A DNA stretch of 56,575 nt, filler included, from Dugesia japonica (lineage: Eukaryota): assembly GCA_001938525.1 (NCBI GenBank). It is 5 parts of 5 records of this genome, joined end to end, with 100 filler letters (N's around TTAATTAATTAA, not from the genome) between each part and the next. Parts side by side here need not be neighbours in the genome. Positions count along the whole stretch, not along the records: positions 37,794 to 48,367 come from MQRL01633637.1; 4 more parts are not named here. The stretch is one strand, 5' to 3'. Below, in pieces: positions 11,854-49,055 of this stretch (position 1 is the stretch's first letter; each line of letters begins with the position of its first letter). The notes under the pieces were generated by a model, which ran no database searches, was not told where the DNA came from, and saw only the letters and a program-made list of their open reading frames with translations. A program made the position numbers and the translations under genes.

Positions 11854-12540
11854 AAAGTTAAACTTTATTATTCAATAATTTTAATTTATCCTTAAACGAA
11901 CATTTGTTTATTTAAATGTTTCATCAATAATTTTAATCTGTTTTAAACAAAAGATTTTAAAAATAAGATCATCAATCACACAAAAATTTCAACTTGCTTT
12001 TCAAAACTGCTCACATACACCATGTATATATACAATAATTAATTATATAAAAACAATTTTCAAATTTAAGATCAAATATTATATACAGAAATGAAAAAGA
12101 AATCTCATTAAATGAATACTGTCACTTCTATTTTGAAACTATCAACAAATTACATTAAAAAAATCACAACTCACAAACCACTAGGAATAAAAAATCTGAC
12201 ATTAATTCTATATTCCTGGATCACATATAAGAACACACGGGTTTAGAGTTAATAATTAGTTTATATTTGTAATAGCATAATCGACTAAATTTTCAATCCA
12301 TTTCATTGGTCTAAAAAGCTAAACTGATTCACTAATTCATAATTGACAATTTCATGTTTCTACCGTTGCGATTAAAAGTTTAACAGATTAAAAATCCGGT
12401 ATATTTAAAAAATACTTTACTTAATTTGATTACCTTTTATTAGTAATAAAAAATAATTTAATTATTCATTAAATTAGGAATAATAATTTGACTTTTGAAA
12501 GAATTTTAAGAACAATGATTATTATTATTATATTATTTAA

Positions 12541-13397: not shown

Positions 13398-13641
13398 TTA
13401 TCCAATATCAATAATTTTGATCTAAGCTTTTATATTAAATGAATTAATAATTATGATAATAATAATGATAATAATAATGATAATAATAATGATAATAATA
13501 ATGATAATAATAACTAAAATAAACTTCTTTTAAATATTTTTATATTTGATTCATTTTTTTAAAATTGGTTTTTGAGTGAAATCAAACCAAATTTAAAAAT
13601 AAATAAAATTATTTTTGTGTTTACTTTTGCTATTATTTTAG

Positions 13642-15108
13642 ATAGATTTCACAATAGTAACCAATTCAATTTTTCCTCAGTTAACATAACGAATAAAACG
13701 ACTTCATCCTATTCAAAAGGTTTATCATTACCAGAAATTATTATCTATTCAATATTAGGTGGGATAGTTGTTATTATTACTGTGGTAGGAAATTTACTCG
13801 TTCTCACTAGTTTTGTTGTTGAACGACAACTTCGAACAATCAGTAACTATTTTCTTCTTTCATTAGCTGCTGCAGATTTAATGATTGGGTTGGTTTCTAT
13901 GCCTCTTTATACAGGGTATTTAGTTGTTGGTGAATGGCCTTTACCCTATTATATATGCGACTTGTGGTTGTCTATTGATTATACGATTTCAAACGCTAGT
14001 GTTGCAAATTTATTGATTATTTCCATTGATCGATATTGTTCTGTCACTCGGCCACTGACCTATAGAATTAAGAGAACATCAAAAAAAGTTTCAATTTGGA
14101 TAGGGATAGCATGGATTATTTCTGCTCTTTTATGGACGCCTTTGATTTACATTTGGCCTATTATTGATGGAAAACGAAATGTTAAACCAAAAGAGTGCTA
14201 TATACAATTTATTCAATCAAGTTACTTATTAACACTTTTGACGGCAAGTCTAGCTTATTTTATACCAGTTACAATCATATCAATATTGTATTTTCGCATT
14301 TACAGAGAGACTAATTTAAGACAAAAAGTATTGAAAAAAATGCATGGGTTGCCAATAAAAACGAATTATCAATCTTCAAATGGTTCTAGATCATCGAATA
14401 TCCATAAGAACCATTCTAAAGAAAACCCATTTCAAAATTTAATTAAAAAGTTTAGTTCATTTAAAAGCTTATCATCTGGAGGTAATAAAAGTTCTAATTA
14501 TTTTAATAGTTTTACGTCGCATCCTTTTCGACCAAATTCAATTACTGGATTTTCAACTCAGATTTCAATTAATCAAGAAGCAGAAAGCTCAAAATATGAA
14601 TACGGAAGATCTATTTATTCAGAATTGAGTGCATCCAATCATAGATTACGTTATAGTAAATCACAATCACTTGACTCAAATTCATCATTACCTGAACCAA
14701 TATTTAATAATAAAAATGAAACAGAGAAAACTGTGTATAAATGTAGTGTTGGAAATATTAATATTCCTGAAGAAGTCAAAATTAGACCAAATAGAATTGA
14801 TTCTCCGATTCGTCAGCTTTCACTCAAATCTCAAAGAAAAAAATCGTGTGATATAGAAAGCTTAAATCACTTAGTCATAGCAAATCCAAATGCTAAAGAA
14901 TTTCCAAATAATCCTACCAGTAGTAGCACTATGGTGATGTTATCACATTGTTCAGGTTCACAGAAATCCGAAAATAAGGCTGCAAAAACACTTAGTGCGA
15001 TTTTATTAGCATTTTTTATCACTTGGACTCCTTACAATATTTTTACAGTAATAAATGCTTTTTATTCTGCTGAAAATCAACCAATCGGACCCACAGTATA
15101 TAATTTGG
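13642..15108 (+). CDS. muscarinic acetylcholine receptor, large exon TM1-TM6 (partial gene)
   Basis: GNLLV, NYFLLSLAAADL, CDLWLSIDY..SNASVANLLIISIDRY, C.IQF, AAKTLSAILLAFFITWTPYNI are muscarinic signatures; AAxTLSAILLAF resembles the M1/M3/M5/GAR-3 type. Likely acceptor ttttag at 13641, donor G|gtatga at 15108/9. First exon and TM7 exon not found. Confidence 0.92.
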
Positions 15109-15369
15109 GTATGAAATTATTTTTATCTATTTAGTTTTATCTATTTTACTTGGTTTTTTGTATTTAAATATGTTTTATTATTTAGGAATCAACTAGAAAT
15201 GAAATTTATTTGTTTATATAAATTGATATATGTTAGATGTTGACAAAATTTAAATAATTGAACACAGATCTGGATTATTTTTAAATATTAAGAATAATAG
15301 TTTAACTTACTAATTTTCATTGAATAACATAACTACTACATAGGTAGAGATTACAGTTTAATAATAAAC

Positions 15370-25940: not shown

Positions 25941-27079
25941 TATTATTATTATTATATTATTAATAGTAGTAGTAGTTAACAATTGAAACATTTTTATGTA
26001 AATTTATAAATTTATTATAAATCGAATTTATTTGGTTTTGCTGTAAATCATTCGAAATTTTTTCGAAGTTGTGATATTTCTGTAAGAATCAATTAAAATA
26101 TTTATGTGTAAAACGTTTTCTGGTAAGATTTTTCGTGCAATATGGTGCCAGTTATTGTTAGTTATTGATTTTCCAAGCCTACATGATATTCAATAAATAT
26201 TTGCATAAGTATTATATTCAAACAGCTGTCTTTGAGATTAATAAATATTGACGTAATTGTAAATTATATATGAATATTAAAATTGTAAATCTGCGAACAA
26301 AATTTACATTTTTTTGTAACTTCATATATTGATTGCATAATTGGTTTTACACGACTAATTTTGCTAATATCTCATAAGCATTTCTNTTATTCTATTATGG
26401 ATTTCATTGAGAAATTGTTTTATCTTTACAAAATTCAGTTATTTGTAAATTAAATAAGACCTCTGCACTTTTACCTACTAAAATTCATCATAAAGATTAT
26501 CTAAAAATCTATTGTTTGAAGATAGATGCCTTTTCATTTTATTTATCTACATGAACATTGAATTCTCTTTAAAATAAATGTGATTCTATCAGTCATCTAA
26601 TTATTTACAAATATTAATGAATTAGTTTCACGTTTTTCATTCATATTTTGATCCTGCATGATTTATAGTAATCATTGATAACTTTTCTTGCAAAGAACGC
26701 ATTTCATTGAAATATGAAAATTTTTAGAAAATATTAATAAGTATTTTTAGCGAAAGAATTTATTCTGATTTTCAATGTCAACAAATACATTTTCATTATT
26801 CTATTTGTCATAGTTATTTTTAAGGCAAATTGTCTAGTTAGAAACCTTGAAATTTATTACAAAATATGAGTTTGTTGAAATTAAAAGTATGCACTATAGG
26901 ATGTACTTTTCTCAATGAAACTTGAAAGTCAGGCGGTCGTATTAATTGTGAACTTTGTGTCGGTAAATATTTATCGAAATTATTTGAAGATGGCAAAACT
27001 CTATAATTTTTTTTATTTTTAATAAACAAATCACAAAATAATCGGAAACTAAATCAATATAGTTTATTTTATGTTCTAG

Positions 27080-27318
27080 ATGGAAATGGTGGTTTATATC
27101 GTGCTCTTTATAATTACAAATTGATAGATGATATGAAATCTCGAGGGATCAAATATGCACTTGTTTATGGAGTTGATAACATTCTCGTTAAGATTGCTGA
27201 TCCAGTTTTTTTGGGATTTTGTGTTGAGAAGGGAGCTGAATGTGCTGCGAAAGTCGTTGAAAAGGTTCATCCAAAAGAAGCGGTTGGAATAGTTGGTAAA
27301 GTCAATGGGTGTTATCAA
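27080..27318 (+). CDS. UAP1: UDP-N-acetylglucosamine pyrophosphorylase, internal exon
   Basis: ag|..[10 protein letters not shown]...[19 protein letters not shown]...AAKVVEK..PKEAVG...YQ|gtaagt. Confidence 0.92.
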
Positions 27319-27402
27319 GTAAGTTTATTGTATTATAGCTATTGATCAGTTTTTATTAAAGAATATAGACGTTTTCAAAATATTAGTTAATGAACTGAAA
27401 TA

Positions 27403-28270
27403 CAGGGTATTCATAAACTTTTTAGGCAATTTTATAAAGTTATTAAAAGTTAATTAAATATGAAGGCATAATATTTTCATATAAATATCAATTAACCCGT
27501 TTTTGCCCGAATTTTGTTTCCACGAAATTCATGATTATTTCAATAAAAACAGCTGCTCACTCTAAACGGATCAAACGTGCTAGATCACTTAACCGTACAC
27601 TCTTCACACTTGTTAACTATCGACTGGTGCAATCATAATCTATATTAGACAATCGATATTGGAGTGGGGATAAAAATAAGCAAAATATTCCAATAATGGA
27701 ACATTGGGCAAAATTTGGTTACTGTTTTATATAAAATGTTGGAAAATTTAAGTATAATTTACTTTATGAATTGCGAAATTTTTAAAATATCGCTTAGATG
27801 ACTACTTCGCAAGTAAAAAAAAAATAACGGCAGGCATTTATCTTAATACTCTAAGAGAGTTCATTTTACCACAATTGCAAGAGCAATTAATATCTAATAT
27901 CATTTTTCAGCAAGATGGCGTATTACTTCATTGGGGATAAAATTTCGTGGCTTTCTAAATAAAACTGTTTCAGGTTGATGAATAGAAAGAGGCGGCCCGA
28001 TTTTGTATCTTCCTGGTTCCCCCAATATAACACCAATGGATTTCTTTCTTGTGAGGTTACATGAAAAATACTCTGTATCAGATCAAAGTTAAAGATATAT
28101 AATGATCTGAAACAAAGGATAACTACGGCTGTAGATGTCATGGTAAAATGAATATTGACGGAAATTACGTATCGTTTGGTTATTCTCCGTGAAAGTAATG
28201 AAAAGCACACAGGAATTTTCTCTTGAGTTGAAAAAAAACTTTATTGAACACTTGATATTATTTAAACGTT
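27403..28270 (+). mobile_element. decayed Tc1/mariner-family element in a UAP1 intron
   Basis: Starts ta-cagggtattcataaac; translated remnants FQQDG, IGRGGP, PGSPNITPMDFFL*GYMK. Confidence 0.7.
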
Positions 28271-29592
28271 TCAACAGTTTCCTGTTTTATTTTTAATTTT
28301 CATAAATTTTTGAAATTTTCAGAACAAAGTTAACTTGAAAATATTTGTGAAGAATTTTTGAAACAATTAATGTATATTGTTGATAGATTTAATGAATATC
28401 GAATTGTATATGTTACGATAAATATGTGTATCTAACTGTTTAGTTTGACATGAAATTGTCAATTTTACAATACGTGAAGTTTTAGACAATTAAAAAGTAA
28501 ATTTTATGCACTATATTTAGTGAAACCAAATGAGAATTCTATTATCTTTTTTTATAAACACTTTCTCATATTAACTGCATCAGCAGCTCTAATAAATCTA
28601 CAAATATGAATTAGAGTTTATAAATAGATTTATTTATTAGTAATTAATATTGGTTATCTGTTAAATCAGACATCAATNNNNNNNNNNNNNNNNNNGCACT
28701 TGAGATATTTTTTTCCTTCCTTGAGACAATGTTTTTAATAGTTTCAAAATCAAGATTTTTTTTCTAATTAATTTTTTATTCATTTATTTTTTTAAAAATC
28801 GGCTATATTGAATTGAAAACATGAAGAGTTTTGTTCATGAATAATTTTTGTTTTAATATCAAATATTGTCTTTCTCAATGTACTCTTGACCCTCTTCGTA
28901 AATTCATATAATGTCTAATGTAATCATGTACAACCTTTTCGACTTATAATTAATTCTGGACCAGAAATTATTCGTTGATTCCAGTAATGTTAAATCGGCT
29001 CTTATGATTTCCTTTGACTCTAAACACGAAAGCTTTTTTTGCTAGAGATATAGATCATGTACCAGGAAGATGGAAACAATTTATAGGAGACAATTCAAAT
29101 TATATTTTGGGTTAGATACAAATCTTTGTTTAAAATTTTTTATTTCCATTTTTGCTTGAAAATCAGCAAGAACTTTCTGTTCAATTTAATATATTTTTGC
29201 TCTTTGAATTTGGTTTTATTAACCATGATGGATTCTATTAATTTACGTAGTAATATTGTAAGAAATTCTTTTCCTAGATTAGTTCTATTTTGATTACTGA
29301 AGTCTTTTCAAATAAGTTAATTATTCCCATTTTAATATGCGTTAATCATTTACATTTCAATCTTATCCAAAATAGAACCATGATACATAATATGTATGTG
29401 GCTCGCAATTTTAATTATTTTTGTTGTAAAAATAATAACTTCTATTTTAAAACTAACAATTTCTTAAGTTAGAATTAACCTTAAAAATGAAAAGTATAAA
29501 ATGTATTGTTTGTCTAAAAGGAAATCGAGTAATTTAACTATAGAATCCATAAAATGAATATTTTAAATCTATAATGATTGCAGTGTATGAAC

Positions 29593-29656
29593 CAGGCGCG
29601 CACCTAGGGGGATCACGGGCTTGAGCCCTCCAACGAAAAACCTGGGTGCGCGTCTG
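29593..29656. mobile_element. 64-bp hAT-type MITE with 8-bp TSD
   Basis: TIRs caggcgcgcacctagg / cctgggtgcgcgtctg flanked by perfect GTATGAAC duplication (29585-29592 and 29657-29664). Confidence 0.85.
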
Positions 29657-29992
29657 GTATGAACAGTATCTTTGTTTTTGTATCTTTTTGCAAAATGTGA
29701 TCAGCCAATTTGTAAATATTCTTTTAATAATTGCAAATAAATAATTTTGTATCGATTTGAATGAAAAATAAAAGATTTCAATTTAGCCTCTGATTTTTCT
29801 CAATATTGGAAGCAGGCTGTTTTTCTAAAATTTAAATGGTTAAATTTAAATTAAATAATAAGTTAAAAATCAATATATTATAAATGTAAAAAATGAATAG
29901 ATTTTTGACTATTGGTATATTGTTGATTTTGTAACTATTATTATTATTAATTTTTTAAAATTAAATTAAAAGTAATATTTTGCATAAATCAG

Positions 29993-30270
29993 GTCATCGA
30001 ATACAGCGAAATTTCAATGGAAACAGCAACAATGCGTGACATAAAAAATAATAAATTGGTGTACAGGTGTGGCAGTATTTGCACTCATTTGTTCAGTGTT
30101 GATTTTCTCTCTCAAATTTGCCAAAGCAATATAAATAATTTGTTAGTGCAGCACATTGCGATTAAAAAAGTGCCTTTTATCAATGTGGAAACTGGAATAT
30201 TAGAAATTCCCGAAAAAGATAATGCTATAAAAATGGAAAAGTTCGTATTCGATGTATTTCCTCTTGCAAA
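29993..30270 (+). CDS. UAP1: UAP1 internal exon
   Basis: ag|VIEYSEIS...GSICTHLFS...HIAIKKVPF...NAIKMEKFVFDVFP|gt; phases match neighbouring exons. Confidence 0.92.
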
Positions 30271-30689
30271 GTAATACTACATTTTATTTTATTTTATAAA
30301 CCAGTAATAGTTATTGTTAGATTAGTCTGTAACACTCATGTTTGCATTTAAAAATCAACACTTCATTTTCAAAATTTCTTTCAAAACAAGACTGATAAAA
30401 ACAACATATAAATTTGTCTTTTAAAACAAATTTTATAACTGAAACTGAAAATAAAAAATATTTTTAAATGAAATTTTAAAATACGATAACAATATGTTTT
30501 AAAGAAAATTAAATCTATAACAGAAATTTAATAATTTCAAACATATATATTATTGACGACTTCCGAATTATAACTTTTAAATATACACTGTAAATTACAA
30601 ATTTTTAAATTTATTTACAATTTCTAAATTTAAATATTCCTTTTCTTGAGACGTTTGATTACATAAAAGTTAAAGAATAATGGCAATCA

Positions 30690-31335
30690 TTTTATAAATA
30701 ACTTAACATGCCATTTAATTAAATATTTATTTATTACAAGTTTAGACAGTTTATCTGTCATCTTCAGACAAACTGTTTAAAACTAATAATATAGTATTTA
30801 TATTAAAGTTCCGAATTATGTAATCGATTATGTAACAGTATCAATAAAATTTCAATTAATTAAAGGCGTTCAATAAAGATTTAGAAACATTAGATCTAAT
30901 TAGATCCATTAATTTTTGGATCATATGATCCAATCATCAATACTTCGTACATGATTCTTTCACAATAATCTTTAAAATTACTGCACAAAATATTGAAATA
31001 ATATTTATAACTGATTTTCACCGAATATTATCATGTTCTGCAATATTACTGCGACTACCTAACCATCTATGTTCCTGAATTCTTGTACAGAGATGACGGG
31101 GGAACTCTCTCCAATGTATGTAGCATTACATTCATATTTTTAAATAAGATTAGAAACCAATAATTTTAGGAGTCTTAGACTTATTACATAACCGATTGCA
31201 CAATGTGGAACTTTAGTATANNNNNNNNNNNNNNNNNNNNNNNNNNNNNNNNNNNNNNNNNNNNNNNNNNACAGATATATTGTCGAAACTTGTAATAAAT
31301 AAATATTTAATTAAATGACGTATTAAGTTATTATT
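30690..31335 (-). mobile_element. truncated Penelope-like element with inverted pLTR-like ends
   Basis: Internal minus-strand remnant LI*KYECNATYIGES / RHLCTRIQEH; ~30695-30830 is inverted relative to ~31190-31335 and carries CTGAAGA-T-GACAG..CTGTC-(G)AAA hammerhead-like cores. Confidence 0.7.
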
Positions 31336-31840
31336 AATATGAAATTTTACGTATGAAAATTATAGACTAGTTATAAACTATCAATTCTAAATTTTAAAAT
31401 TTACTACAAATTATTAATTTAAAATGTAGTTTATTAAACATTTAATTACATAAAATTTTATGTTTATTTCACAAATTTCTTTTATGATTTAATTAAAAAT
31501 ATTTAACAAAATAATTTTAATAAATTCCGTCTCAATATAGAAGGTTTTTTTTTGATCAATACATTTATAAAATCAGTATTGTGGATCATATAAAAAATAT
31601 TAACACAATGAAAAATTGCAATTATTACAAGATGTAACCATTTATCGTTTTTCAGAATTCATTAAAATAAAAGCTTCGATCAAATTTTGTTTATGATAAT
31701 AATTCTAATTTTCAACTTTGTCTTCGTCAGGAATTGTTTTTTTTTTGTCAATTCCTATTATTCTTGCAATAATTCTTGTAATTATAAACCTATTCAATTC
31801 ATTTGTGGCAATATTTCAATAATTTTCTATTCATTTCCAG

Positions 31841-32060
31841 AACCTTTGCTATTTGGGAAGTAGAAAGAAATAGAGAATTTTCTGCTTTAAAAAATGCTCC
31901 TGGGAGCCAATCAGATTGTCCAGAAACGGCGAAAAATGATCTCCTTGCATATCATCGTCAATTGATTCTTGATAATATTGATGATGATGATTCAAATCTA
32001 AAAGAAAAAGTTAATAAAACTATTATAGAATTATCCCCATTACTAACCTACAGTGGAGAA
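31841..32060 (+). CDS. UAP1: UAP1 penultimate exon
   Basis: ag|TFAIWEVERNREFSALKNA...DCPETA...ELSPLLTYSGE|gt. Confidence 0.92.
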
Positions 32061-32109
32061 GTAAATTGTTTTGTTACTTTATCGGTAAATATTAAATTGA
32101 TTCATCTAG

Positions 32110-32193
32110 AATATGGAAAATATATCAGTTCTAATTAAAAATTCTGGTGACGAATCTATTGTTCAGTTGGAGAGTAAACAAGTTGGCAAATAA
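32110..32193 (+). CDS. UAP1: UAP1 terminal exon
   Basis: After a 49-nt gt..ag intron, the frame reads NMENISVLIKNSGDESIVQLESKQVGK-stop. Confidence 0.7.
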   Translation, partial: NMENISVLIKNSGDESIVQLESKQVGK

Positions 32194-37793: not shown

Positions 37794-38348
37794 AAAATAT
37801 TTTGGTCTTATTTTTTTTCCATCTTTTATTAATCTTCTTATTGTATCTTTTTCATTTCTACCAATTGATAAAGGTAATATTAATTGACCATTAACCATTT
37901 GACTATTTGGCATATCAACAATATTTCCACTATCCATTTGAATAATTCGTGTTGCATTTGGATGAAGTTTTAAATTAAATTTTGGTGGATAAAATTCTTC
38001 TAATTGTGGTAATGGTTTAAATGTATTTCTTTTTAATAATTTTAAATTTTCTGGGTTATTAATAATTACTAAATTCTCTGGTGTTTCAATGTTAAATGTT
38101 TCACTTTCAGTTTCAAATTGTCCGGAAGCCAGCGAAGCGCATTCAGAACTTTCACTTTCACTTCCTTCTTGATCATTTCTCATTTCTATATATTCTGATT
38201 CTGAAAATTGGGATTCACTTTCACTTTCACTTTCTGAATTAATTAAATTATCAAGTGTTGTTATTAAACTTTTTAATTCTTTTTTCATCTTCTCACTAGA
38301 TTTTATTTTAGGTAATACATCTTCAATTTTACTTGTTACATCTTCCAT
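37794..38348 (-). CDS. Polinton hypothetical protein with Ser/Glu-rich linker (truncated by spacer)
   Basis: Open ~185 codons, co-oriented with the element; no recognised family. Confidence 0.55.
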
Positions 38349-38454
38349 TGCTTTGCTATTTCTTAAGTATATAATTTGAGACTCGTGTGTGTCAGATTTT
38401 AGATTTTATATTTTAGATTTTATATAAAACATGTAACATGAAACATCCGACATC

Positions 38455-39045
38455 TTATTGCATTCTTAGCTTCGCTCTCATTTCATTTATAACTTTAGTT
38501 TGATTTTCTAATATTATTTTTAAATTTTCATCTTTTACTTTTTTATGTCCAGATATTAATTCATGAACTTCATTCACCATATTTTTACTTATAAGTAATT
38601 CATCATCAGTTAGTATTTCATCATTAAGTGCTTTTTGCTGAAATGAGAATAATTTATTTTTAACACATTCTAGTTTATTTATTAACTTTTCATATTTATC
38701 TTTTCTTGAATTAATTAATGATGAATTTAATGTGCCAATAACTGGTAAAATGGAAATTGCACCAGTAATTAATGGTTTACCAATTGTTGTAAGTGCAAAT
38801 CCAATTGGAGTAATTAATATAACACCACCAATTCCAATTATAACACCAACACATATTTGTGTATAATTTATAGCCAAATCTATTCTGATCCATCTTTTAT
38901 AGATTTTCTTATAATGTTTAATTTTATCTTTAATATAATAAAGATCATTTTCAAAATCTTTTACTCTAGATAATGCAAGTTTATTTTTTAAATCTAAAAT
39001 TGTGTAATCTTCATGTAGGCTAGTATATAACTTTTCTGTGTCCAT
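38455..39045 (-). CDS. Polinton-associated predicted membrane protein
   Basis: Intact 196-aa ORF with Gly-rich hydrophobic hairpin and KALNDEILTDDEL, like the KALxDxxIxDxEF motif I recall from invertebrate Polinton ORFs. Confidence 0.65.
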   Translation of the reverse strand: MDTEKLYTSLHEDYTILDLKNKLALSRVKDFENDLYYIKDKIKHYKKIYKRWIRIDLAINYTQICVGVIIGIGGVILITPIGFALTTIGKPLITGAISILPVIGTLNSSLINSRKDKYEKLINKLECVKNKLFSFQQKALNDEILTDDELLISKNMVNEVHELISGHKKVKDENLKIILENQTKVINEMRAKLRMQ

Positions 39046-39050
39046 TTTCT

Positions 39051-41028
39051 TTATGATAAAGTTAAATACTTTAAATTTATTCCTTCTGGTAAAACTATTT
39101 CAATATAATTAATAACGGTTTCACTGCTTTCTTTAAAAATAATAATAGTTTTATTAGAATGTGTAAATGTTTTTATCTTAACATTAATTTTAATGACATA
39201 TGTAAAATTTTCAATTTTAGAATAACCATTAATATTTATTTTTACTTTTCTATTAATGTTTATGTGTAAACTAATCTGATAAACATTTCTCTTTTCTTTT
39301 AAAATCAAAATCATGAACATATTTTTCTAAAATACTAAAATGTGGAAGATTATCTTTTACTTCTTTAATTGAAAATAGTAAATGTGGATTTGAATAATAA
39401 GGNNNNNNNNNNNNNNNNNNNNNNNNNNNNNNNNNNNNNNNNNNNNNNNNNNNNNNNNNNNNNNNNNNNNNNNNNNNNNNNNNNNNNNNNNNNNNNNNNN
39501 NNNNNNNNNNNNNNNNNNNNNNNNNNNNNNNNNNNNNNNNNNNNNNNNNNNNNNNNNNNNGTAAAATTATTAGAATAAAGTTAATATTAAGATCTTGATT
39601 AACTACACTACTTTCAACATTAATATTAATATCATAACCATCTTTTAATCTAACATATAAAAATGATACTGCAATTTTATTAATTTTAGTGACATATGCA
39701 AATTTTTCCATTTGTCCACATTCACCTTTAATATTTATAACTATTCTTCCAATAACTTTAGTATGTAAAGTAATATTTAAAATTTTTCCATTCTTTTTGA
39801 TAAAATTAAAATCATGAACATATTTTTCTAAAAAAAAAAATATTGATCTTTAATTGAAAATATTACATTTGGGTTTATATAATAAGGTAGGTAATTAACA
39901 AAAATTTCTTTTATAGCTTGAATATTTGAAGTTTTAAAAAAAAACATTAATTTTATCAATATAAATTTTATGGAGTTTTGGTTTAAATATTTTAAACATT
40001 TTCTTAAAATATTCAAGCATTTCTAATCTATATAAACTAACACTTAATTCACTTATATAAATTTCTTTTGGTAAAATTATTTCAATATAATTAATAATGG
40101 TTTCAGTGCTTTCATAAAAAATTTTAATACTATCATCTTTAGGTTTATATAAAAATGATTGTGAAATATTATTTATTTTAATGATGTATGTAAATGTTTC
40201 AATTTTAATAGAACCAAATATATATATACTAATTTTTTCTTTTATTTTTGTATGTCAAGATATTTCTTTACCTTTTCTTTTAAAATTAAAATCATTAACA
40301 CATTTATCGATAAAAGAATAATAACGGGAGTAATTAAAATTATCTCATAAGTACTAACTGTAAAATCATAATTTAAGAAATTATCAAGTATTTCTTTTAA
40401 GTTTTGAAGTGATGAATCTGTAAGTGTTTCTTTATAAGTTTTAAATAAAACATCAATTTTATCACTATATATTTTATGTTGTTTTGATTTTACTATTTTA
40501 ATTTCTTCAGTTAATTTTAAAATTTTTGGTCTAAAATTTTCTATAAGGGATTTAATATTATTAATAAGATTCATATGCTGATCAAATGTTTTCTTATCTA
40601 AATCATCATCTAATTTATTAATTTTAACATTTAAAATGTCAATGTCTTTTTTAATTTTACGTATATCACCATAGTCTAATTTTTTTAAATGAATTAATTA
40701 ATCACTTCTTTTATATGGAAAAGGTTCTTTTTATTTTATATTTATTTTTTTTATTTTATATTTAATTTATTTTATCAAATGTTTCTTTATTACAGTATTT
40801 AATTAAGATATTATCCATCTTTAATTTAAGTAGTTTAATATATTTTAAATTAACTGCATCAATTAAAGCTTTAGGTTCTTCTGTTATTTTTAAAGATGTT
40901 ATTGTGTCACTTGTCTTATTTACAAATTTATTTTCATTGTATGCATCTGACATTTTAAGCTTAGCATCAACACTTTTTAATACTTGTGTAGTATTTAGAT
41001 TTAATATATTTTCACCAAACTTATTCAT
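39051..41028 (-). pseudogene. fragmented fibre/receptor-binding-like protein with three tandem C-terminal domains
   Basis: MNKFG start, KFVNKTSDT..PKALIDAVNLKYI motif, coiled-coil segment, then three ~480-500-bp paralogous units. Confidence 0.5.
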
Positions 41029-41467
41029 TCTTTTCTAATAGTGAATTATAAAGTGTTAACATTTCAGATATAATATCATCAAACTCACTTCGTTCGTTCA
41101 TCTTATATAAAAAATAAATACATAATACACCACATATTTTAGTTCCAAAATGTTGAACTTGAATTTCATTATATTTCGTGACAAACTTTTCAATTTTATC
41201 TAAAGGTTTTAAACCAAAAGAGTCAAAGTAAAATCCGTTAGTGTAACATGTCCAATGTATTCCATTTTGATTTGAATTTTGATAATTAAAAATATAATTC
41301 GTATTATTTACACTGAGCGCTTGCGCCCAATTTAAGTTTAAAATCTCATCTTTCATATATATTTCTAAATCCATTTCTAAAAAGTTAGCAATTGAATATA
41401 AATCAAAATTTGTAGTTATATTAATTCCAAATGTTTTTAAAAAGTCTAATAAGTTGTAATCTGTCAT
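41021..41467 (-). CDS. adenain-like (C5) cysteine maturation protease
   Basis: NGIHWTCY...YFDSFG...QVQHFGTKICGVLCIYFL: His, Asp, Gln and Cys catalytic motifs intact. Confidence 0.9.
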   Translation of the reverse strand: MTDYNLLDFLKTFGINITTNFDLYSIANFLEMDLEIYMKDEILNLNWAQALSVNNTNYIFNYQNSNQNGIHWTCYTNGFYFDSFGLKPLDKIEKFVTKYNEIQVQHFGTKICGVLCIYFLYKMNERSEFDDIISEMLTLYNSLLEKNE

Positions 41468-41504
41468 GGCTATTTATTAAATGTTAAATGTAACACGAAA
41501 CCTT

Positions 41505-42128
41505 TTACATTCGATACTTTCGTAAATGAACTAAAATTGTAATTGTTTCTTGGTTAAAATCTACGGTTTTAAAATGTTCATCTACAACAGTAAATTTTAA
41601 TCTTGAAATGTAATAAGTATTAATTTTAGAATAAGTTGTTGTTGTTGGTCTGTCAAGAATTTTATATCCTAAACCAACTGTATTAATTGGAAATGAATAT
41701 AATAAATTTATTTGTTCAGTATTTCCTATTTCAGATTTTACATAACTACCTTTAACAATATTACAAGTTATATTTATTGTGTTAATATTTGAAATGTCAA
41801 TTTTATTTTCTGAGAAATGATCTCCTGGTTGATAAGTTTTAGGAATGTTATCATTTCACATTTTGCAGTTGCTGTATTGGCTAAAATTTCTATTTCATAT
41901 ATTTTTAATTTATCTGATATTGCTTTTACTTCATATGATCCAGGTTCTAATTTAGCTTCTTTACTATCAACAGTAAATTTATTATTTAAATTTGTTATAA
42001 TAAAAATAATATTGTAACATGAAAAAACAAATTAAACTAAGTTCATATTCTGAATCTAATTCTAAAGGATATTTTATATCTAATATTAAATCTTGTTCTT
42101 TTCCAACTACTAAGAATTGATGTGACAT
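41505..42128 (-). pseudogene. Polinton minor capsid (penton-like) protein, frameshifted
   Basis: MSHQF...YPLELDSEYELSL...LEPGSYEV...INITCNIVKGSY...LLYSF...GYKILDRP...YISRLKFTVVDE...VDFNQETITILVHLRK. Confidence 0.75.
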
Positions 42129-42279
42129 TTTCTATAAATAAACTTTAGCTTGCACAGCAAGCTTTTGTTAAACTTAAAATGTTTTGTATTAAATGTTAAC
42201 ATTTTACATTATCACAATTAAACCCCACTTCGTGGGCATGTTAATTTTTAAAATATTTAGCTTTATATTTATCATAAAT

Positions 42280-42990
42280 CTTATTAGATATTAAACCCAT
42301 CATCTTTAATTTTTACATGTCTTTTTAATTTCTTCATGTAAATTGCTATGTCCTGATTTTGTTGCTGAAATTAATAATGTTAACTTTTCAAATAAATTTA
42401 TAGGATTAAGAGCATTTATTCTAGCTTTACCTTTTGGTCTACCTTTTTTTTAGCTGTTAAAAATTTACAGTGTTCATCATCTTAAGTTACTTTTACCATT
42501 TTAGTTAAATATAATGAAATTAAATTTTTTGCATCATCATCTTTGTTTATCTTATCTCTATTTCCTAAAATTATTTCTAATAATTTTTCATTAAAGGTGT
42601 AACTTTTTCATCTATATTATAATATTTTGCATTACCCCTTTGATAAAAATATAACTCATCATCATTTCCTGGAAATTTTATTGTTAAACATTTTTTATCA
42701 TTAATAACTGTCTTATATATTTTTGGTTTTGTTAATTCTGTTAATCCATTTTCTTTAGGTTTTAAAAAAGGAAGATAAAATTGTTGTATTTCTTTTTTTC
42801 TTAATACCTCAATAATTTTTTCTTCTATTAGTTCTTCTTTTTCTATTTTTGGTTCTATTATTTCTTCTTCTATTATTGGTTTTTCTATTATTGGTTCTAT
42901 CTTTTGAGTTTGACTTTTTTCTATTGCTGAAATTATTGGTTGTTGCATAAAAGATAATTCACTTTGTATGTTTCTCGAATCAATTACATT
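42280..42990 (-). pseudogene. Polinton conserved hypothetical protein, disrupted
   Basis: ORF 42577-42948 plus downstream LNPINLFEKLTLLISATKSGHSNLHEEI, resembling the DPNELxxRLxLLxAxxxAGN motif of Polinton ORFs. Confidence 0.55.
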
Positions 42991-43047
42991 ACCACAGAAA
43001 AAATCATTATACTTTTAATTAAAGCTTTTAATTCTTGAATTCTTTCT

Positions 43048-43560
43048 TCAATTTGTTTCGTGCCCATATCTATTTCTATAAGGATTTAAATAAATACCTT
43101 CACCTTTCCATGGGTTTAAATAAATACCATTACCTTGTTTAATTATTTTAATTCCTTCTTTAAAGTTTTTTGTTACTTCTTTTAAGTAAGGATCTTCAAT
43201 TATATTCTTTAAATATTTATGAATAGCCTTTCCTTGCCATGGATTTAAATAAATACCGCTACCAGATGTGGATGTTTCTTTTGATTTATCCAACATCTCG
43301 ATTTCTTTTTGTTTTTTAATTGCTTCTTTTGAACTAGCTACAGTAGATGCAATTCCAGATGCAATTCCTGCTGTTCCACCTAATGCATCGATAACTGCAG
43401 GTATTGCAGCTAAAAATGCAAATCCACCCTNACTCCTTCGGGATCTAAGTTCATCCTTTACTTTTTTAGAAATTTAATNATTTTTACCATCTATCTTTAC
43501 AGATTTACATTTTTTAGAATTAACTATTTTTTCTAATTCTTCTTCTGTTGGGTTGCTCAT
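43048..43560 (-). pseudogene. putative virion core / membrane-penetration protein
   Basis: GGFAFLAAIPAVIDALGGTAGIASGIASTV followed by three GxGIYLNP(W/Y) repeats; two N bases lie near the frame break. Confidence 0.7.
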
Positions 43561-43563
43561 TTT

Positions 43564-46500
43564 CTATAATAAAAAATTACAAGTTAAAGTTATATTTATT
43601 AAGTCTAATCTTAAATGCCATTGATTACACAAAGAGCATTCATATTCATTTCCATGTGGCCATGTTGTTTTTTTTCCTTCACTTTTTTCAATAATTCTTT
43701 TATCATCATATCCTGTTAATCCTATCTTTTATTGTTCTACAGTTTCAATTTCATGTAAGTTAGATCTTAATGAATAATTTTTTCCATAAATTATTTTTTT
43801 AGAATCATCTAAAATTTCATCAAAATCTTTCATCAAGTGAGGACTGTTTTTCTTTAAACCTTTATTTTTAAAATCAAACTTTATTTGTCTTTTAACTTTA
43901 TCAATCCACGTAAAACCATAAGATTTTGCTTTTATAAAATTAGCTTGAATTATATCAGAATAAGTCATTTCCCAATAAACTTTCTAATTTTCCAAAATTA
44001 TCTCTTCCAATTATCTCTACAAATATTGAATCAGTGTTTTTTATAATTAATGGAAATTTACAATTAAATGTACCATCACTTGTTTCAATATCATAAACAT
44101 CTTCTACACCTTCTCTTAAAAATCTAACACTTTGCACATTATATGAAACATCTTCTATTTCTCCAAGTTCAAATTCACCTGTAATAAATAAATTNNAGCT
44201 ACAATAAAATGCTTTGGCTAAAGATATTTTATCTGGAAATGATCTATTTCTAAATTTTAATCGTTCACCCATTATCTCATTGTGTAATAAGATAGTTTTT
44301 TTAGTTAATTTGGTTGGTTTAATTTCTTTACCTTTATGATCTAACAGTGAATGATCTTCTGTTACATCTACAATTCCAAAATGAGTTCTAACTCTATAAA
44401 TCTTTTTATTTGTAGTGTGTTTTATTACTTTCTTTAATGGAACCCAATCACTTTTAGTCCAAATTTTATAATCTTCAGGATAAGAATAAAATTAACCATT
44501 ATATTTATTGTAATAGTAAGGTTTTGATATTTCTGAAATCTTTTTTATTATAACTTTATAATTTTTTAGTAGTAATGTTGGAGTGTCAGCTGTTACACTA
44601 TCACTGTAATGTATTTTATAATTATCATTTCCAAGTAATGGATCCATTTGATTATAAATAAAGTCGTACATTACTTCTTTTGCATATTCTAAAATGGTAA
44701 ATCCTATATATGGAAATTTATTATATTTTAATTTTCCTTTTATCATGTGCATTGCTGCAACATTTGCTTCATTGCTATCATTCATTGTGAAAATTTTACT
44801 AGACTTAAAATTTATTTTACTTGCGAACTTTTGATAGTCTCTGTCGCTATCTACAATTTCTATGTTGCATCTATTTCTAATATTTTCTAAGGTTTTTCCA
44901 AAAAAATGCATTCAACATTAATTTATAAATATAATCACCAAAGACATCTTTAATTCTTTTTGATTCTTTTCTTAATGTTATAATTTGTGAACATGATTTT
45001 TAAACCATGGAGATGTTGGCATTTTAATTTTCTTGTGAACATTTTTTAGTATTACACCTAGTTTTAAATATAAATTTAATGTACTTCCTAGAACTACATA
45101 ATTTTTCTTATTGAATTGATTTAGTGTTAATTGAATATTTTCCTATCCAATTTTTTTATTAAATGATTTTTGGTAATCACTTAACATGTCTTCTGTGATA
45201 TTTATTCTTTCAGGTGCTAATGGATAATATTTAGTTTTATTATGAATTTCTCTTGGATAATCAAGATCAACTTCATAAACAAAACTAATTTTATCATTTG
45301 ACATTTCATATGTCAACTCATTGCACTTGTTTAATTCACATGTGGTTAGTGGTCTAGTCATACAACTAGAATATAAACTATTTTTGTCAATATATTTTAT
45401 AAATGTTTCTTCTAATAAATCATCAAGATAATCATCTAGAATGAAATCATGTGTCTTCATCATTTTTATTAAATCTTCAAACTCTGCTTTATTTAATTGT
45501 TTAGTATATGGATCTCGTAATTTATTACAACTAAAAACTTGACGTTCGCCACAAACACCAGAATATCCACCTCTAATTCCTGATTCAATCATTAAGAAAA
45601 TGTCAAATGTTTTAGATTTAGCATATTTTAAATTAACATTTGCATTTAACATTCCTGTATCCCATGCATATCCTAGTGCTGAATATGAATAACACAGATC
45701 TAATTTAATAATATTATTTAAACACGAATCTCTATAGTTTTCTAAAAAGTCAGTTAGAATTAATACATCTAACTTTATATAGTGTAACATGTAACACCAC
45801 ATATTATCATATCCGCAAAAGTCATTCAGAAATATTTGATAATCTTCATCAGATATTTTGTTTTGATTTTATGTGTTAAAGAAATCTTCTTTTGTTGGTA
45901 TTCTGTTAGATTTAAATAATTCTTCAACTTCTGTTATACTGTCACCTTTCACATATTCATATGGGAAACTTACTTTTTTCAGTCTTAAATTAAATGAATT
46001 TAAAATTGGATAATTATTAGCTTGTGTTAGTAATTTTCCCATTACTTCAACTGTTGTAAATGGAAGTAATCTTGCCGAATCAAGAAATCTAATATTTCTA
46101 AATTGAAAAGAAATATAATTATCTGATGAATGTAGAATTATCCTTTTTACATTTCCTGGAAAGTTTATTATTGGTTTTCTAAAAAATAAATGGTTATTAT
46201 AACCTGATGCGTTATGAAAATAAAATGGTATAAATAAATTCTTTATACTTTTATCATTTATGTTACATTTATTAAATGAATATCCTCTAAATTCACCATT
46301 AAAATGATTATGATCTTTAACTGGCTCCACTATTTTTTTCACAATATCTACATTTTGTGTTAGGTGTAAAATCTGGAACTTCACTTGTAATTTCTAATAT
46401 TAATTTATTATCTTTTATATCTTGTAATTTATTATTAGTTTCTTCTAAAAATTTAAAAAATTCATCATAAATATTTTCTCCTGCAAATTCATAATATTTG

Positions 46501-47291
46501 CTTTCTAATAAATCTTGATAATCTGATTTTAAATAAACACCTAAAGATAAAGCTTTTTGCTTTTTAGTTAGAATGTTTGTGTATGCTTCAAAATCTCCAA
46601 TTAATACAAATGGAATTTTATTTTTCTGGTAAAATTTATTAAAATAATAATAATCATTATGTTGAAAAACAATGTTGTTTGGTTTATGGTTAATACACAT
46701 TTCTTGATGTTTTTTTAAAACTTCTATATTTGAATAACAGTTCATACAGCGCAAGCATGGATAATTTGTATTAGTATTTTTTACAAAGAATACAGTTACA
46801 TCTCTACATAAAAAGTAATGATTTTTATACACTAATAAGTTACATTTATTTTCTTCAGGATTTGGTTTTATTATATAATGTGAAATGTATAATGGTTACA
46901 GTTTTTTATTATCATTTACTGAAAATACATTTATTTGAAAATTATTTAATTTCTCAAATTTAGTTATATCATCAATGTTCATAGGAAAATTAAATCCATC
47001 ATATTTTAAATCTGTTAAATGTGGAATGTAATTACTTAAATATGTTGGATTATCAAAGAAATACTTGTGAGCTAAGATTGAATATAGAAAAAATTTGTCA
47101 TCTTTATTTTCTATATTAATAACTCCATGTTTTTTAAAAGGAAGTTTACAATATGTTGCTCCAACTAATGATTTATATTTAGAAAGATCTAATTTAAAAT
47201 CAATTATATGAGGCATCGTCCATCCTGAACCTTTCCTAAAGAAATGAAACTTCCATTTAAATTTCTTTGTATATTTCTTGATGAATCCCAT
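43564..47291 (-). pseudogene. protein-primed family B DNA polymerase (pPolB), multiple stops/frameshifts, intein-containing
   Basis: GSGW..INIENKDDKFFLYSILAH; GDFEA; VKDH..G.FRG..NKCN; FHNASGY; FLDS; IRGG; YIDKNSLY (motif A); KLMLNAFFGKTLEN (motif B); YSD|intein|TDS (motif C); KAKSY; KNKG; YDDKR..TWPHG. Confidence 0.95.
44036..44599 (-). mobile_element. mini-intein (Hint domain, no evident homing endonuclease) in pPolB motif C
   Basis: In-frame 188 codons: block A SVTADTPTLL; IWTKSDWVPLKKVIKH; block B IYRVRTHFGIVDVTEDHSLL; block F VYDIETSDGTF; block G IIKN then +1 Thr. One TAA at 44492-44494 and an nn at 44195-44196. Confidence 0.93.
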
Positions 47292-47405
47292 GATCTAGTT
47301 TTATATTCAATGTTCCATTTTTTAAATAATTTTTTACAGTTTTTTCATTTACATTATAAACTTTACAAAACTTATGTATAGAGTTATTTTTAAAATTATA
47401 GTCAT

Positions 47406-48017
47406 CTAACATTTTATATAAAACTGTGTCCATTTATTTATGATTTTTTTAGCATAAGCTCTATCTACTCCAGTAATTTCTTTTAGAGACGCGATTCGTT
47501 TTAATACATTAAATGAAAGCTTGTCTGTATTTAAATTTTTAACTAAAGTATTAAAACGTTTTGCGGTTAAATTTACTCTTTTATTTTTATCACTCGAATG
47601 AATTACTATAGTAATATCATCAATTATTTTTGGTTTCAATTCTTGTTTAAATTGCGATAAAACATTATTGAGTTCACCTCTCTCTTTTTGGTGGGCATCA
47701 CGGATTTCATTAATAGCTTTTAAATAAGCTTTATTCTCAGTAATAAATGAGTCAAGCAAAAAGGCACGACTTTCACTTTCTACACATTTTGAAATAATAA
47801 AAGTCATTATCCCTTTATATAAATTTTTATTATCTTCTTCTAGATTTAATTCTTCTAATGTTTCATATATTCCATGAAGAATATCTAAATGATGTTTTAC
47901 ACAATCATGTGAAAGTTCATAATCTAAATAACCTTTTATTTCATCTAAATTTGACTCATCAAATTTTTCAAATTTCTTTATTGAATTTACTAATGTACAT
48001 AAATTTAACTCACACAA
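47406..48017 (-). CDS. Polinton hypothetical ORF upstream of pPolB (possibly its N-terminal/terminal-protein part)
   Basis: 203 open codons co-oriented and adjacent to pPolB; start uncertain. Confidence 0.5.
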   Translation of the reverse strand: MCELNLCTLVNSIKKFEKFDESNLDEIKGYLDYELSHDCVKHHLDILHGIYETLEELNLEEDNKNLYKGIMTFIISKCVESESRAFLLDSFITENKAYLKAINEIRDAHQKERGELNNVLSQFKQELKPKIIDDITIVIHSSDKNKRVNLTAKRFNTLVKNLNTDKLSFNVLKRIASLKEITGVDRAYAKKIINKWTQFYIKC

Positions 48018-48367
48018 AACTTTTTTCTCTAGAACAACTTTTCTTGTTGTTATTATAGTTGTTATTATAGTTGGGGGATACTAGCGCACGGACCCACTTT
48101 TTTAAGCAATTATCGAGGGGACCCCCCGGGGAAGGCTAAGAAACACATTACGCTTGAGCTGCGTTTTTTAATTATAATTTTTGGGTTGGTTTTTTTTTCT
48201 AAGATTTTTGGGATCAAAAAGTTTTTGATCATATCAAATTTTTTTTTGATCAGATCAGTTTTTTTGATCCTGATAGTTTGTGTGTGTATTTTTAATATTA
48301 AAATTTGTGTGTGTTTGGGTTGTTAAGGTGGTTTTTAAAAAGTAGGTCAAGTTGAGTTTGTGTGTGT

Positions 48368-48644: not shown

Positions 48645-49055
48645 ATGCCTAAATCTCATATCACGAATCAATATACAAACACCGAAAGGACGGACATGCA
48701 TTTTATGTATGGGTAAGAGAATTGGAATTCATTAAAGGCTAAGCAGTTGTACGACCAACGATTTCCAAAACGTCATGTTCCTGATAGGAAAACTTTTGAA
48801 AGAATTCATCGCCATCTTCACGAAACAGGCACGTTTAAACACAATTGTGCTCCAGGAAGACCAAAACCAGGAAGAATATTAGCAATTAAAGAAGATGTGT
48901 ATGATATGGTAGAGGAAGATCCCCATACTTCAACGAGAATAATAGCAGACGCATTGAATGTAAAAATTTTGAGGCAATTAAAGCTTTTCCCATACCACAT
49001 TCAACGCGTTCAAGCACTTCTTAACAGAGATTTTTCTACACGAATCGCATTTTAG
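48645..49055 (+). mobile_element. Tc1/mariner-family transposase N-terminal HTH remnant (DUF4817-like)
   Basis: YTNTERTDMHFMYG*...LYDQRFPKRHVPDRKTFERIHRHLHETGTF...VEEDPHTSTRIIA...FPYHIQRVQAL. Confidence 0.8.

Follow-up and report, generated by a model that had tools for sequence, protein, structure and literature searches.

A motif-C mini-intein in the protein-primed polymerase gene of a decayed, many-copy Polinton-like element of Dugesia japonica

A 2018 survey reports 67 viral DNA-polymerase inteins and describes metazoan genomes as being without inteins (PMC5784728). Algae and a labyrinthulomycete have nuclear scaffolds on which viral-like DNA polymerases carry inteins too (PMC10710043). 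In Polintons, the protein-primed DNA polymerases (pPolBs) are known to carry HNH and VSR nuclease insertions (PMC10748475, PMC11161782), which have been suggested to stem from intein invasions (PMC11161782). The word 'intein' occurs 0 times in the main texts of two descriptions of adintoviruses and animal Polintons-Mavericks (PMC8502044, PMC8097293). A published intein in a fish Maverick was looked for and not found (0 occurrences in the main text checked), nor did the literature searched yield any Polinton intein; an unremarked one may be contained in Repbase or paper supplements.

The window, a stretch of 56,575 nucleotides (filler included) from D. japonica (assembly GCA_001938525.1), contains a 10.6-kb contig, MQRL01633637.1, whose features are given in Table 1. 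A neighbouring contig encodes a muscarinic receptor, which marks the host as an animal. N44-TTAATTAATTAA-N44 spacers mark both 37794 and 48367 as contig ends, of which a preliminary description had named the first. That description also put all genes on one strand: this is true of 20 of the 23 stop-to-stop frames of at least 80 codons in 37794-48367, which lie on the minus strand, and not of three plus-strand frames, each of only 85-97 codons. The gene order it proposed (ORF, pPolB, core-like, hypothetical, penton, protease, fibre-like, membrane ORF, ORF) is borne out by frames and searches, and the protease and membrane genes it called intact are indeed open. Many lesions were likewise ascribed to pPolB, correctly so, with at least five in-frame stops and at least four frame changes, but penton and core-like gene are broken too. 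The reported lack of major capsid, packaging ATPase and rve integrase is confirmed across the whole window, where the major capsid profile has no match and the best match of the other two profiles is an unconvincing E 0.12. Note that the contig is incomplete, being cut inside an ORF at 37794, and that the three genes plausibly lie past this point. At the other end, the summed depth of related contigs from host sequencing runs (see below) reaches 4.9-6.3e5 over the probable terminal repeat, against ~1e4-6e4 for most pPolB bins; an (AC)3A terminal motif is known in some Mavericks (PMC8097293). A second copy of the repeat was not found within the window, which holds one element end only. Two features were absent from the preliminary description, namely the intein and three repeats of ~490 nt.

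Table 1. Features of contig MQRL01633637.1, in window coordinates.
Feature	Position	Strand	Evidence
Decayed Polinton/adintovirus-like element, one arm; whole contig	37794..48367	-	spacers at both ends, strand bias, family contigs
ORF with acidic stretch, truncated by contig end	37794..38348	-	open frame
Membrane protein, intact, 196 aa, single long hydrophobic stretch	38455..39045	-	hydropathy
151-codon ORF, then three diverged repeats of ~490 nt that encode a related domain; broken	39051..40697	-	repeats
Fibre-like ORF (weakly supported)	40762..41028	-	weak match to gene after protease in L001 and L080
Adenain/Ulp1-type maturation protease, intact	41021..41467	-	alignment, model, Foldseek
Minor capsid protein (penton), two frame changes	41505..42128	-	profile, L001 homologue, Atlas
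Hypothetical gene, broken; in place of conserved gene preceding penton	42300..43014	-	position only
Core-like gene (cupiennin/pX-like by position; weakly supported), one stop beside N	43048..43560	-	L001 match
Protein-primed DNA polymerase B, divergent, probably Beta-like class, broken; ends approximate	43600..47433	-	tblastn, tree
Mini-intein, 188 codons, in pPolB motif C between YSD and TDS	44036..44599	-	TIGR01445, homologues, Hint-fold model
Open frame, 224 codons; separate gene or variable front of pPolB	47406..48080	-	low family depth in runs
Probable terminal repeat; contig end (AC)4A at 48367-48359	48207..48367	-	family depth, end motif

Polymerase, protease and penton are of Polinton/adintovirus type by homology, profile and fold, as the preliminary description had it. 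The pPolB is closest to polymerase P0279 (41% over 622 columns, tblastn E 2e-133) and shares 32-35% identity with P0003. Its pieces do not reach Pfam PF03175, which P0279 itself matches at E 4e-10; this weak match of its relatives, together with a split from P0002 and L001 in the polymerase tree, would place it in the Beta-like class. The open frame at 47406..48080 has no Pfam match above cut-off. In the protease, His71-Asp82-Gln105-Cys112 is invariant in all eight aligned sequences, and the model (pLDDT 87) retrieves adenovirus and ASFV proteases at Foldseek probability 1.00 (E 0.003-0.005); a PDB sequence search yielded chance matches only. The broken penton is assigned, from its sequence, to the minor capsid proteins by a six-homologue profile (E 1.7e-17), a homologue in the adintovirus-like locus L001 (E 1e-13) and Atlas 0.95 to a Sputnik minor-capsid cluster; a homologue search with its one-frame read-through retrieved 0 of 36 candidates. 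The remaining morphogenesis labels stand less firmly. A match to the gene preceding the protease in L001 (E 7e-5 pairwise, 0.005-0.011 in searches) weakly suggests a core-like gene, and the gene downstream of the protease in L001 and L080 (E 0.014-0.027) gives a similarly weak hint of a fibre. The hypothetical ORF is not matched by the profile of the gene before penton. Between the fibre-like and membrane genes sits a 1.6-kb stretch of repeats, spaced 480-506 nt apart and 48-51% identical to one another in protein. The membrane ORF has a weak lead, Atlas 0.92 to unnamed 197-aa clusters of viruses and eukaryotes; no family was found for the truncated ORF at the contig end, and no structural ORF receives a name from Pfam or NCBIfam.

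Class 1 inteins carry an N-terminal Ser or Cys, a TxxH in block B, an Asp in block F and a C-terminal Asn followed by Ser, Thr or Cys at +1; a penultimate His is usual and not obligatory. The insertion in pPolB matches TIGR01445 above cut-off, has the junction YSD/S...N/TDS, and presents Ser1, TxxH at T80-H83, D170, the terminal Asn N188 and Thr+1. S1, T80, D82, H83 and N188 are invariant in 29 of 29 aligned inteins, D170 nearly so, and the penultimate residue is Lys rather than His, as it is in 22 of 28 aligned relatives. The model (pLDDT 83) adopts the Hint fold and matches 41 PDB structures at E<=0.001, every one of those listed being an intein or intein-like domain. The polymerase P0279 has the same flanks on both sides of an empty site. 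In-frame insertion, an empty allele elsewhere, the splicing residues and the Hint fold are all as in a class 1 intein, and the insertion is predicted to excise itself. Its 188 codons hold no LAGLIDADG match, and ~160 endonuclease residues are missing relative to P0002, the core having been deleted in frame; because this core is gone, we class the intein as a mini-intein and not as the full-length, homing type seen in P0002 and P0003 (350 and 354 aa, LAGLIDADG retained). In the window copy an in-frame stop at 44492-44494 interrupts the intein, and two of its bases are N.

Is the contig part of the animal's chromosomes at all? It is unplaced, and 37794-48367, both ends of which lie at spacers, shows neither a host flank nor a target-site duplication, so one might imagine contamination, a symbiont or a free virus as its source. 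We regard such a source as very improbable. The three DNA runs, which stem from separate studies (2014, 2015, 2025), each contain ~29,000 related contigs of 80-100% identity (~28,400-29,600 per run on 43480-48367, and ~18,800 per run on 37794-43430), the window copy has many private lesions, and its GC content of 23% is similar to that of the adjacent host contigs. This large, diverged family and the private lesions uphold the earlier view of an integrated, inactive copy. At three of the five pPolB stops almost all overlapping contigs differ from the window copy, and the stop in the intein is private to it. The intein itself is present in many host copies: at its positions each run has 14-43 distinct contigs, comparable to polymerase positions. 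An intein-free allele is present too, as a joint with a net loss of 564 nt, the exact intein length, in two of the three runs, supported by one contig per run with a short side of only 19-20 letters; a second joint at the same site (net 610 nt) is inconsistent with exact intein removal. A check of RNA data, as had been proposed, turned up 64, 13 and 126 reads of 10-14 million; almost all of these are partial, most are less than 90% alike, and they give no sign of transcription of the window copy. There was no RNA among the listed holders of the contig sequence.

Where might the intein have come from? Among the 120 homologues listed for it, 117 reside in proteins with PF00136 (RNA-primed PolB), two with PF03175 and one in another protein, and 111 occupy the same site. 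Of the best 80 viral loci, 37 are giant-virus MAG contigs and none holds a pPolB. In the intein tree the three complete pPolB inteins compared (window, P0002, P0003) form one clade (100/94) within a 47-row clade at 99/92, the window branch being long (0.93). Because this tree is rooted at its midpoint, a direction from giant virus to Polinton rests on the nesting and the numbers. A grouping of window and P0003 is not rejected (AU test, p-AU 0.53); a sister relationship of the window intein to an Alpha-type pPolB intein (100/91) was dropped after that test. Only four intein-bearing pPolBs are at hand, the fourth being L162, cut after ~27 intein residues. It is the one real hit among three matches of a junction-pattern search of metagenome contigs, L161 and L163 being chance, as is the single match in prokaryote genomes; the two junction patterns had no match in viral contigs. 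Nor were loci close to P0003 or P0279 found among viral contigs, and we saw no intact intein-bearing element in its genomic context, the contig of P0003 itself not having been recovered.

The pPolB tree (46 rows) requires four changes to account for the four bearers, so that one intein clade sits on scattered polymerases. This pattern might arise if the intein travelled with a whole polymerase gene, or a swapped polymerase segment, and not by homing. Polymerase replacement among Polintons is indeed documented (PMC10748475), and homing needs similar flanks, which differ between P0002, P0003 and the window. We nevertheless think a swap unlikely, since on either side the window flanks match those of P0279, a close relative that has no intein, and well-supported branches separate the four intein-bearing polymerases. 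Descent of an intein ancestral to Polinton polymerases and lost nearly everywhere would also yield a single clade, whose internal order may follow the polymerase tree. Such an origin strikes us as less credible again: inteins are absent from all 150 representative pPolBs (0/150), the window and P0002 inteins are 58% identical in polymerases whose N-exteins lack significant alignment (E 0.81), and the clade is nested among giant-virus inteins.

A different scenario is that the intein never functioned in the animal and killed the polymerase, its bearers being multiplied by helper elements with an empty site. The empty allele in the host runs fits this, as does the lack of any sign of transcription of the window copy, with splicing a prediction. 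Against it, all splicing residues are retained, the endonuclease was deleted in frame, and the stop is confined to the window copy; improbable as it is, we rank this scenario highest among the alternatives.

In the explanation we favour, with a probability of roughly 0.75, the contig is one broken member of a Polinton/adintovirus-like family present in many copies in the animal, whose motif-C mini-intein was likely acquired from a giant virus, was likely carried from one Polinton lineage to another by homing, and is predicted to self-splice, allowing the polymerase to work. An endonuclease-bearing intein would have passed from the motif-C allele of a giant-virus PolB into a Polinton polymerase, in a cell holding both, and then moved into further Polinton lineages. 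Deletion of the endonuclease in the window family would have left an immobile passenger whose position in the polymerase active site makes it difficult to lose. The family would then have multiplied in the germ line while still carrying the intein, for which protein splicing in animal cells would have been required, and the window copy presumably decayed last, after amplification. A bolder version, for which we would put the chances at slightly less than even, posits a Polinton-specific intein lineage derived from giant viruses, still endonuclease-armed in some lineages and moving between Alpha- and Beta-type polymerases, amplified here to very many chromosomal copies, maintained by splicing in the animal germ line, and marking Polintons that share cells with giant viruses.

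A multi-copy Polinton family in a host is ordinary; the intein is the unusual part. For animal genomes, described as intein-free (PMC5784728), the window provides a concrete case in a multi-copy family, with the qualification that the intein resides in a viral-type and not a host gene. For Polinton polymerases, inteins had been no more than a conjecture drawn from nuclease inserts (PMC11161782). The intein would record an exchange of genes between giant viruses and Polintons, and it bears on whether Polintons accompany giant viruses or parasitize them. Moreover, a genome with both filled and empty alleles would open the intein homing cycle to study in an animal.

How, then, does the element compare with known systems? 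With adintoviruses and animal Polintons-Mavericks (PMC8502044, PMC8097293) it has in common the pPolB, adenain, penton, core-like and fibre-like genes, packed closely and without introns, as well as numerous decayed endogenous copies and an (AC)nA-type end; unlike those described, its pPolB has a motif-C intein, and the contig contains no major capsid, ATPase or integrase. In L001 the major capsid gene follows penton, whereas here the protease does. With the motif-C inteins of giant-virus family-B polymerases it shares the site YxD/TDS, the end residues, the existence of mini and full-length forms, and up to 49% identity over the splicing domain, but its carrier is the protein-primed polymerase of a small integrating element with copies in an animal genome. 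As in the algal and labyrinthulomycete cases (PMC10710043), the intein enters a nuclear genome inside an endogenous viral polymerase rather than a host gene; what differs is the animal host, the Polinton carrier and the multi-copy family. Like the HNH and VSR insertions (PMC10748475, PMC11161782), it is a selfish-type insert in pPolB, yet those consist of nuclease domains only, as described, while in the window polymerase the splicing domain itself is present.

The catalytic motif C of pPolB, the element's protein-primed DNA polymerase B, is interrupted: YSD is followed by 188 codons and only then by TDS. The insert scores above the NCBIfam cut-off for the intein N-terminal region (29.2 versus 24.5 bits), and its Pfam intein match falls under the cut-off. 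A homology search with the region returned 1,121 proteins; among the 120 listed, 117 are PF00136 polymerases and 111 carry an intein at the same site, between YxD and TDS. S1, T80, D82, H83 and N188 are invariant across all 29 aligned inteins, and the structural model (pLDDT 83) finds 41 matching PDB chains (E<=0.001), those listed all being inteins or intein-like domains. The top two homologues, P0002 and P0003, are themselves pPolBs, with inteins of 350 and 354 residues that have kept LAGLIDADG; from the window's intein ~160 residues of that core are missing. In a fourth pPolB, on a metagenome contig (L162, 598-1191, minus strand), an intein starts at the same site and stops after ~27 residues at low-complexity sequence.

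Where might such an intein have come from? Scanning viral contigs with intein patterns left 80 loci, 37 of them from giant-virus MAGs and none with a pPolB. In a midpoint-rooted tree of the splicing domain (112 rows, 159 columns, nine matches without a regex-defined intein omitted), the window's intein sits on a long branch. The inteins of the three pPolBs group as a single clade (100/94) nested among homologous inteins; inside it, a pairing of the window with P0003 is not rejected (p-AU 0.53, 30-row subset). Out of 103 representative polymerases whose motif C is complete, the first 36 were combined with ten chosen rows and compared over the 300 residues preceding motif C; in this 46-row tree the four intein-bearing polymerases require four changes, every one forced by starred branches. 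Between the window and P0002 the inteins are 58% identical and the polymerases do not align. Inteins are absent from all 150 representative pPolBs, and P0279, the nearest polymerase, shows the same flanks as the window around an empty site. The likeliest course is that an intein of the giant-virus motif-C allele, bearing an endonuclease, got into a Polinton polymerase a single time, inside a cell that contained both; it would then have homed into further Polinton lineages. Loss of the endonuclease, evident in this copy of the family, would have left the intein immobile; this copy decayed afterwards.

The family is clearly large. Parts of the stretch occur in 11 of the 24 sequencing runs listed (ten from one organism, one from another; five studies). 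Three DNA runs yielded 29,622, 28,385 and 28,365 contigs that match 43480-48367 with an identity of at least 80%, and against 37794-43430 two yielded ~18,800 each; summed depths should not be read as copy numbers. Among the five pPolB stops there are three (45870, 45145 and 44494) where almost every overlapping contig differs from this copy, so that those lesions are private to it. Family size and private lesions together support the preliminary description's decayed, host-integrated copy, on a contig that has no flank. At intein positions each run has 14-43 distinct contigs, versus 12-95 at the listed polymerase positions; given this similarity, the intein is shared by the family rather than peculiar to this copy. 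In two of three runs a single contig leaves out 568 nt and has 4 inserted, a net 564 that is the exact intein length and in frame. This joint supports, but does not prove, an intein-free allele, its short side being only 19-20 letters; a second joint at the same place (net 610) does not fit one. Because the intein interrupts the catalytic aspartates, the polymerase would work only once it has been spliced out, and the amplification of copies that carry it is thus a pointer to splicing in animal cells, unless those copies were made by helper elements with an empty site. That the host is an animal follows from the muscarinic acetylcholine receptor coded on another contig.

The element occupies a single entire contig of 10,574 nt, flank-free, and its genes lie on one strand as first described, with 20 of 23 frames >=80 codons on the minus strand. 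The many lesions reported for pPolB amount to five or more in-frame stops and no fewer than four frame changes. The protease ORF is indeed intact, with His, Asp, Gln and Cys kept in all eight aligned sequences; structure prediction, which the preliminary description had proposed, gave a model (pLDDT 87) whose structural matches are the proteases of adenovirus and of ASFV (probability 1.00, E 0.003-0.005; none at E<=0.001). The membrane ORF is likewise open, with no family name assigned. A 116-codon piece upholds the minor capsid gene (E 1.7e-17 against a six-gene profile drawn from related loci; 0.95 against a Sputnik minor-capsid cluster). Major capsid, packaging ATPase and rve integrase, not seen originally, again gave no convincing match in the window with profiles from three, five and three homologues, respectively, on an incomplete contig.

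Coordinates of features along the joined stretch
Feature	Position	Strand	Remark
pPolB	~47430 to 43600	-	P0279 aligned, 41% over 622 columns, E 2e-133; P0003, 32-35%
pPolB in-frame stops	46896, 45869, 45143, 44492, 43729		
Cys/His-rich segment in pPolB	46250-46350	-	same place matches Endonuclease VII in relatives P0279 and P0131; one frame change lands here
Intein insert	44036-44599		
Minor capsid piece	41508-41855		
Repeat region	39051-40697	-	three diverged ~490-nt repeats, related coded domain, 48-51% identity
Motif TTTCRTGTTACAT	38431-38443, 41488-41500	-	two intergenic gaps, preceding last ORF and protease; further near-match at 42012
TAWAGAAAATG	43558-43568, 42126-42136, 39043-39053	-	spans start codon of core-like, penton and membrane genes
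GATCAAA-like units	48200-48280		short array near element end
Spacers N44-TTAATTAATTAA-N44	13265, 25841, 37694, 48368		part the joined contigs, which are unplaced
Muscarinic acetylcholine receptor	13563-15134	+	long open frame, E 4e-79
Helitron replication-helicase gene (presumed)	9486-11857	-	resembling fragments
Sugar-nucleotide pyrophosphorylase (presumed)	27007-32138	+	resembling exon-like pieces
DUF4817 transposase-type frame	48717-49055	+	resembling piece
Ubiquitin-activating enzyme	55882-56223	-	resembling exon-like piece

The repeat region is possibly that of the fibre head; joints in the host runs pass over roughly one or two ~490-nt units, so unit number may vary between copies. With one mismatch allowed, TTTCRTGTTACAT has four matches in the window versus 0.85 expected and is a possible promoter element. 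TAWAGAAAATG has four versus 0.55 expected, one of them within an ORF. RNA data, which the preliminary description had also wanted consulted, supplied few reads (64, 13 and 126 of 10-14 million, nearly all partial) and, in the 6-25% of each of three runs that was read, no sign that this copy is transcribed. In RNA run X13, six to nine reads partly match the protease (near 41252) and the core-like gene (43285-43327) and then diverge from the window; they may reflect low transcription of a related family.

The literature searched (supplements, subscription papers and Repbase lay outside its scope) describes no Polinton or adintovirus with an intein. PMC8097293, PMC8502044 and PMC10748475 nowhere use the word 'intein' in their main text, and in PMC12220804, PMC3671162 and PMC13768754 inteins get passing mention only. 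PMC5784728 treats animal genomes as intein-free. PMC11161782 suggests that nuclease inserts in pPolBs stem from intein invasions, and PMC10710043 describes inteins in viral-like polymerases that two green plants and a labyrinthulomycete carry on nuclear scaffolds. What is new here is a giant-virus-type intein that is borne by a Polinton and repeated in an animal genome.

The element itself probably belongs to a known group, with one putative end and part of the hallmark genes visible on the contig. Depth over the final 160 nt is about ten or more times that of the pPolB bins, and the contig terminates in (AC)4A, which fits a true element end, although chance can also place a microsatellite at the end of a contig; PMC8097293 reports a resembling end motif for some Mavericks. 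As to the labels core-like and fibre-like, they have weak support: L001, an adintovirus-like contig carrying ATPase, rve integrase and double-jelly-roll capsid, has weak counterparts of both genes adjoining its protease.
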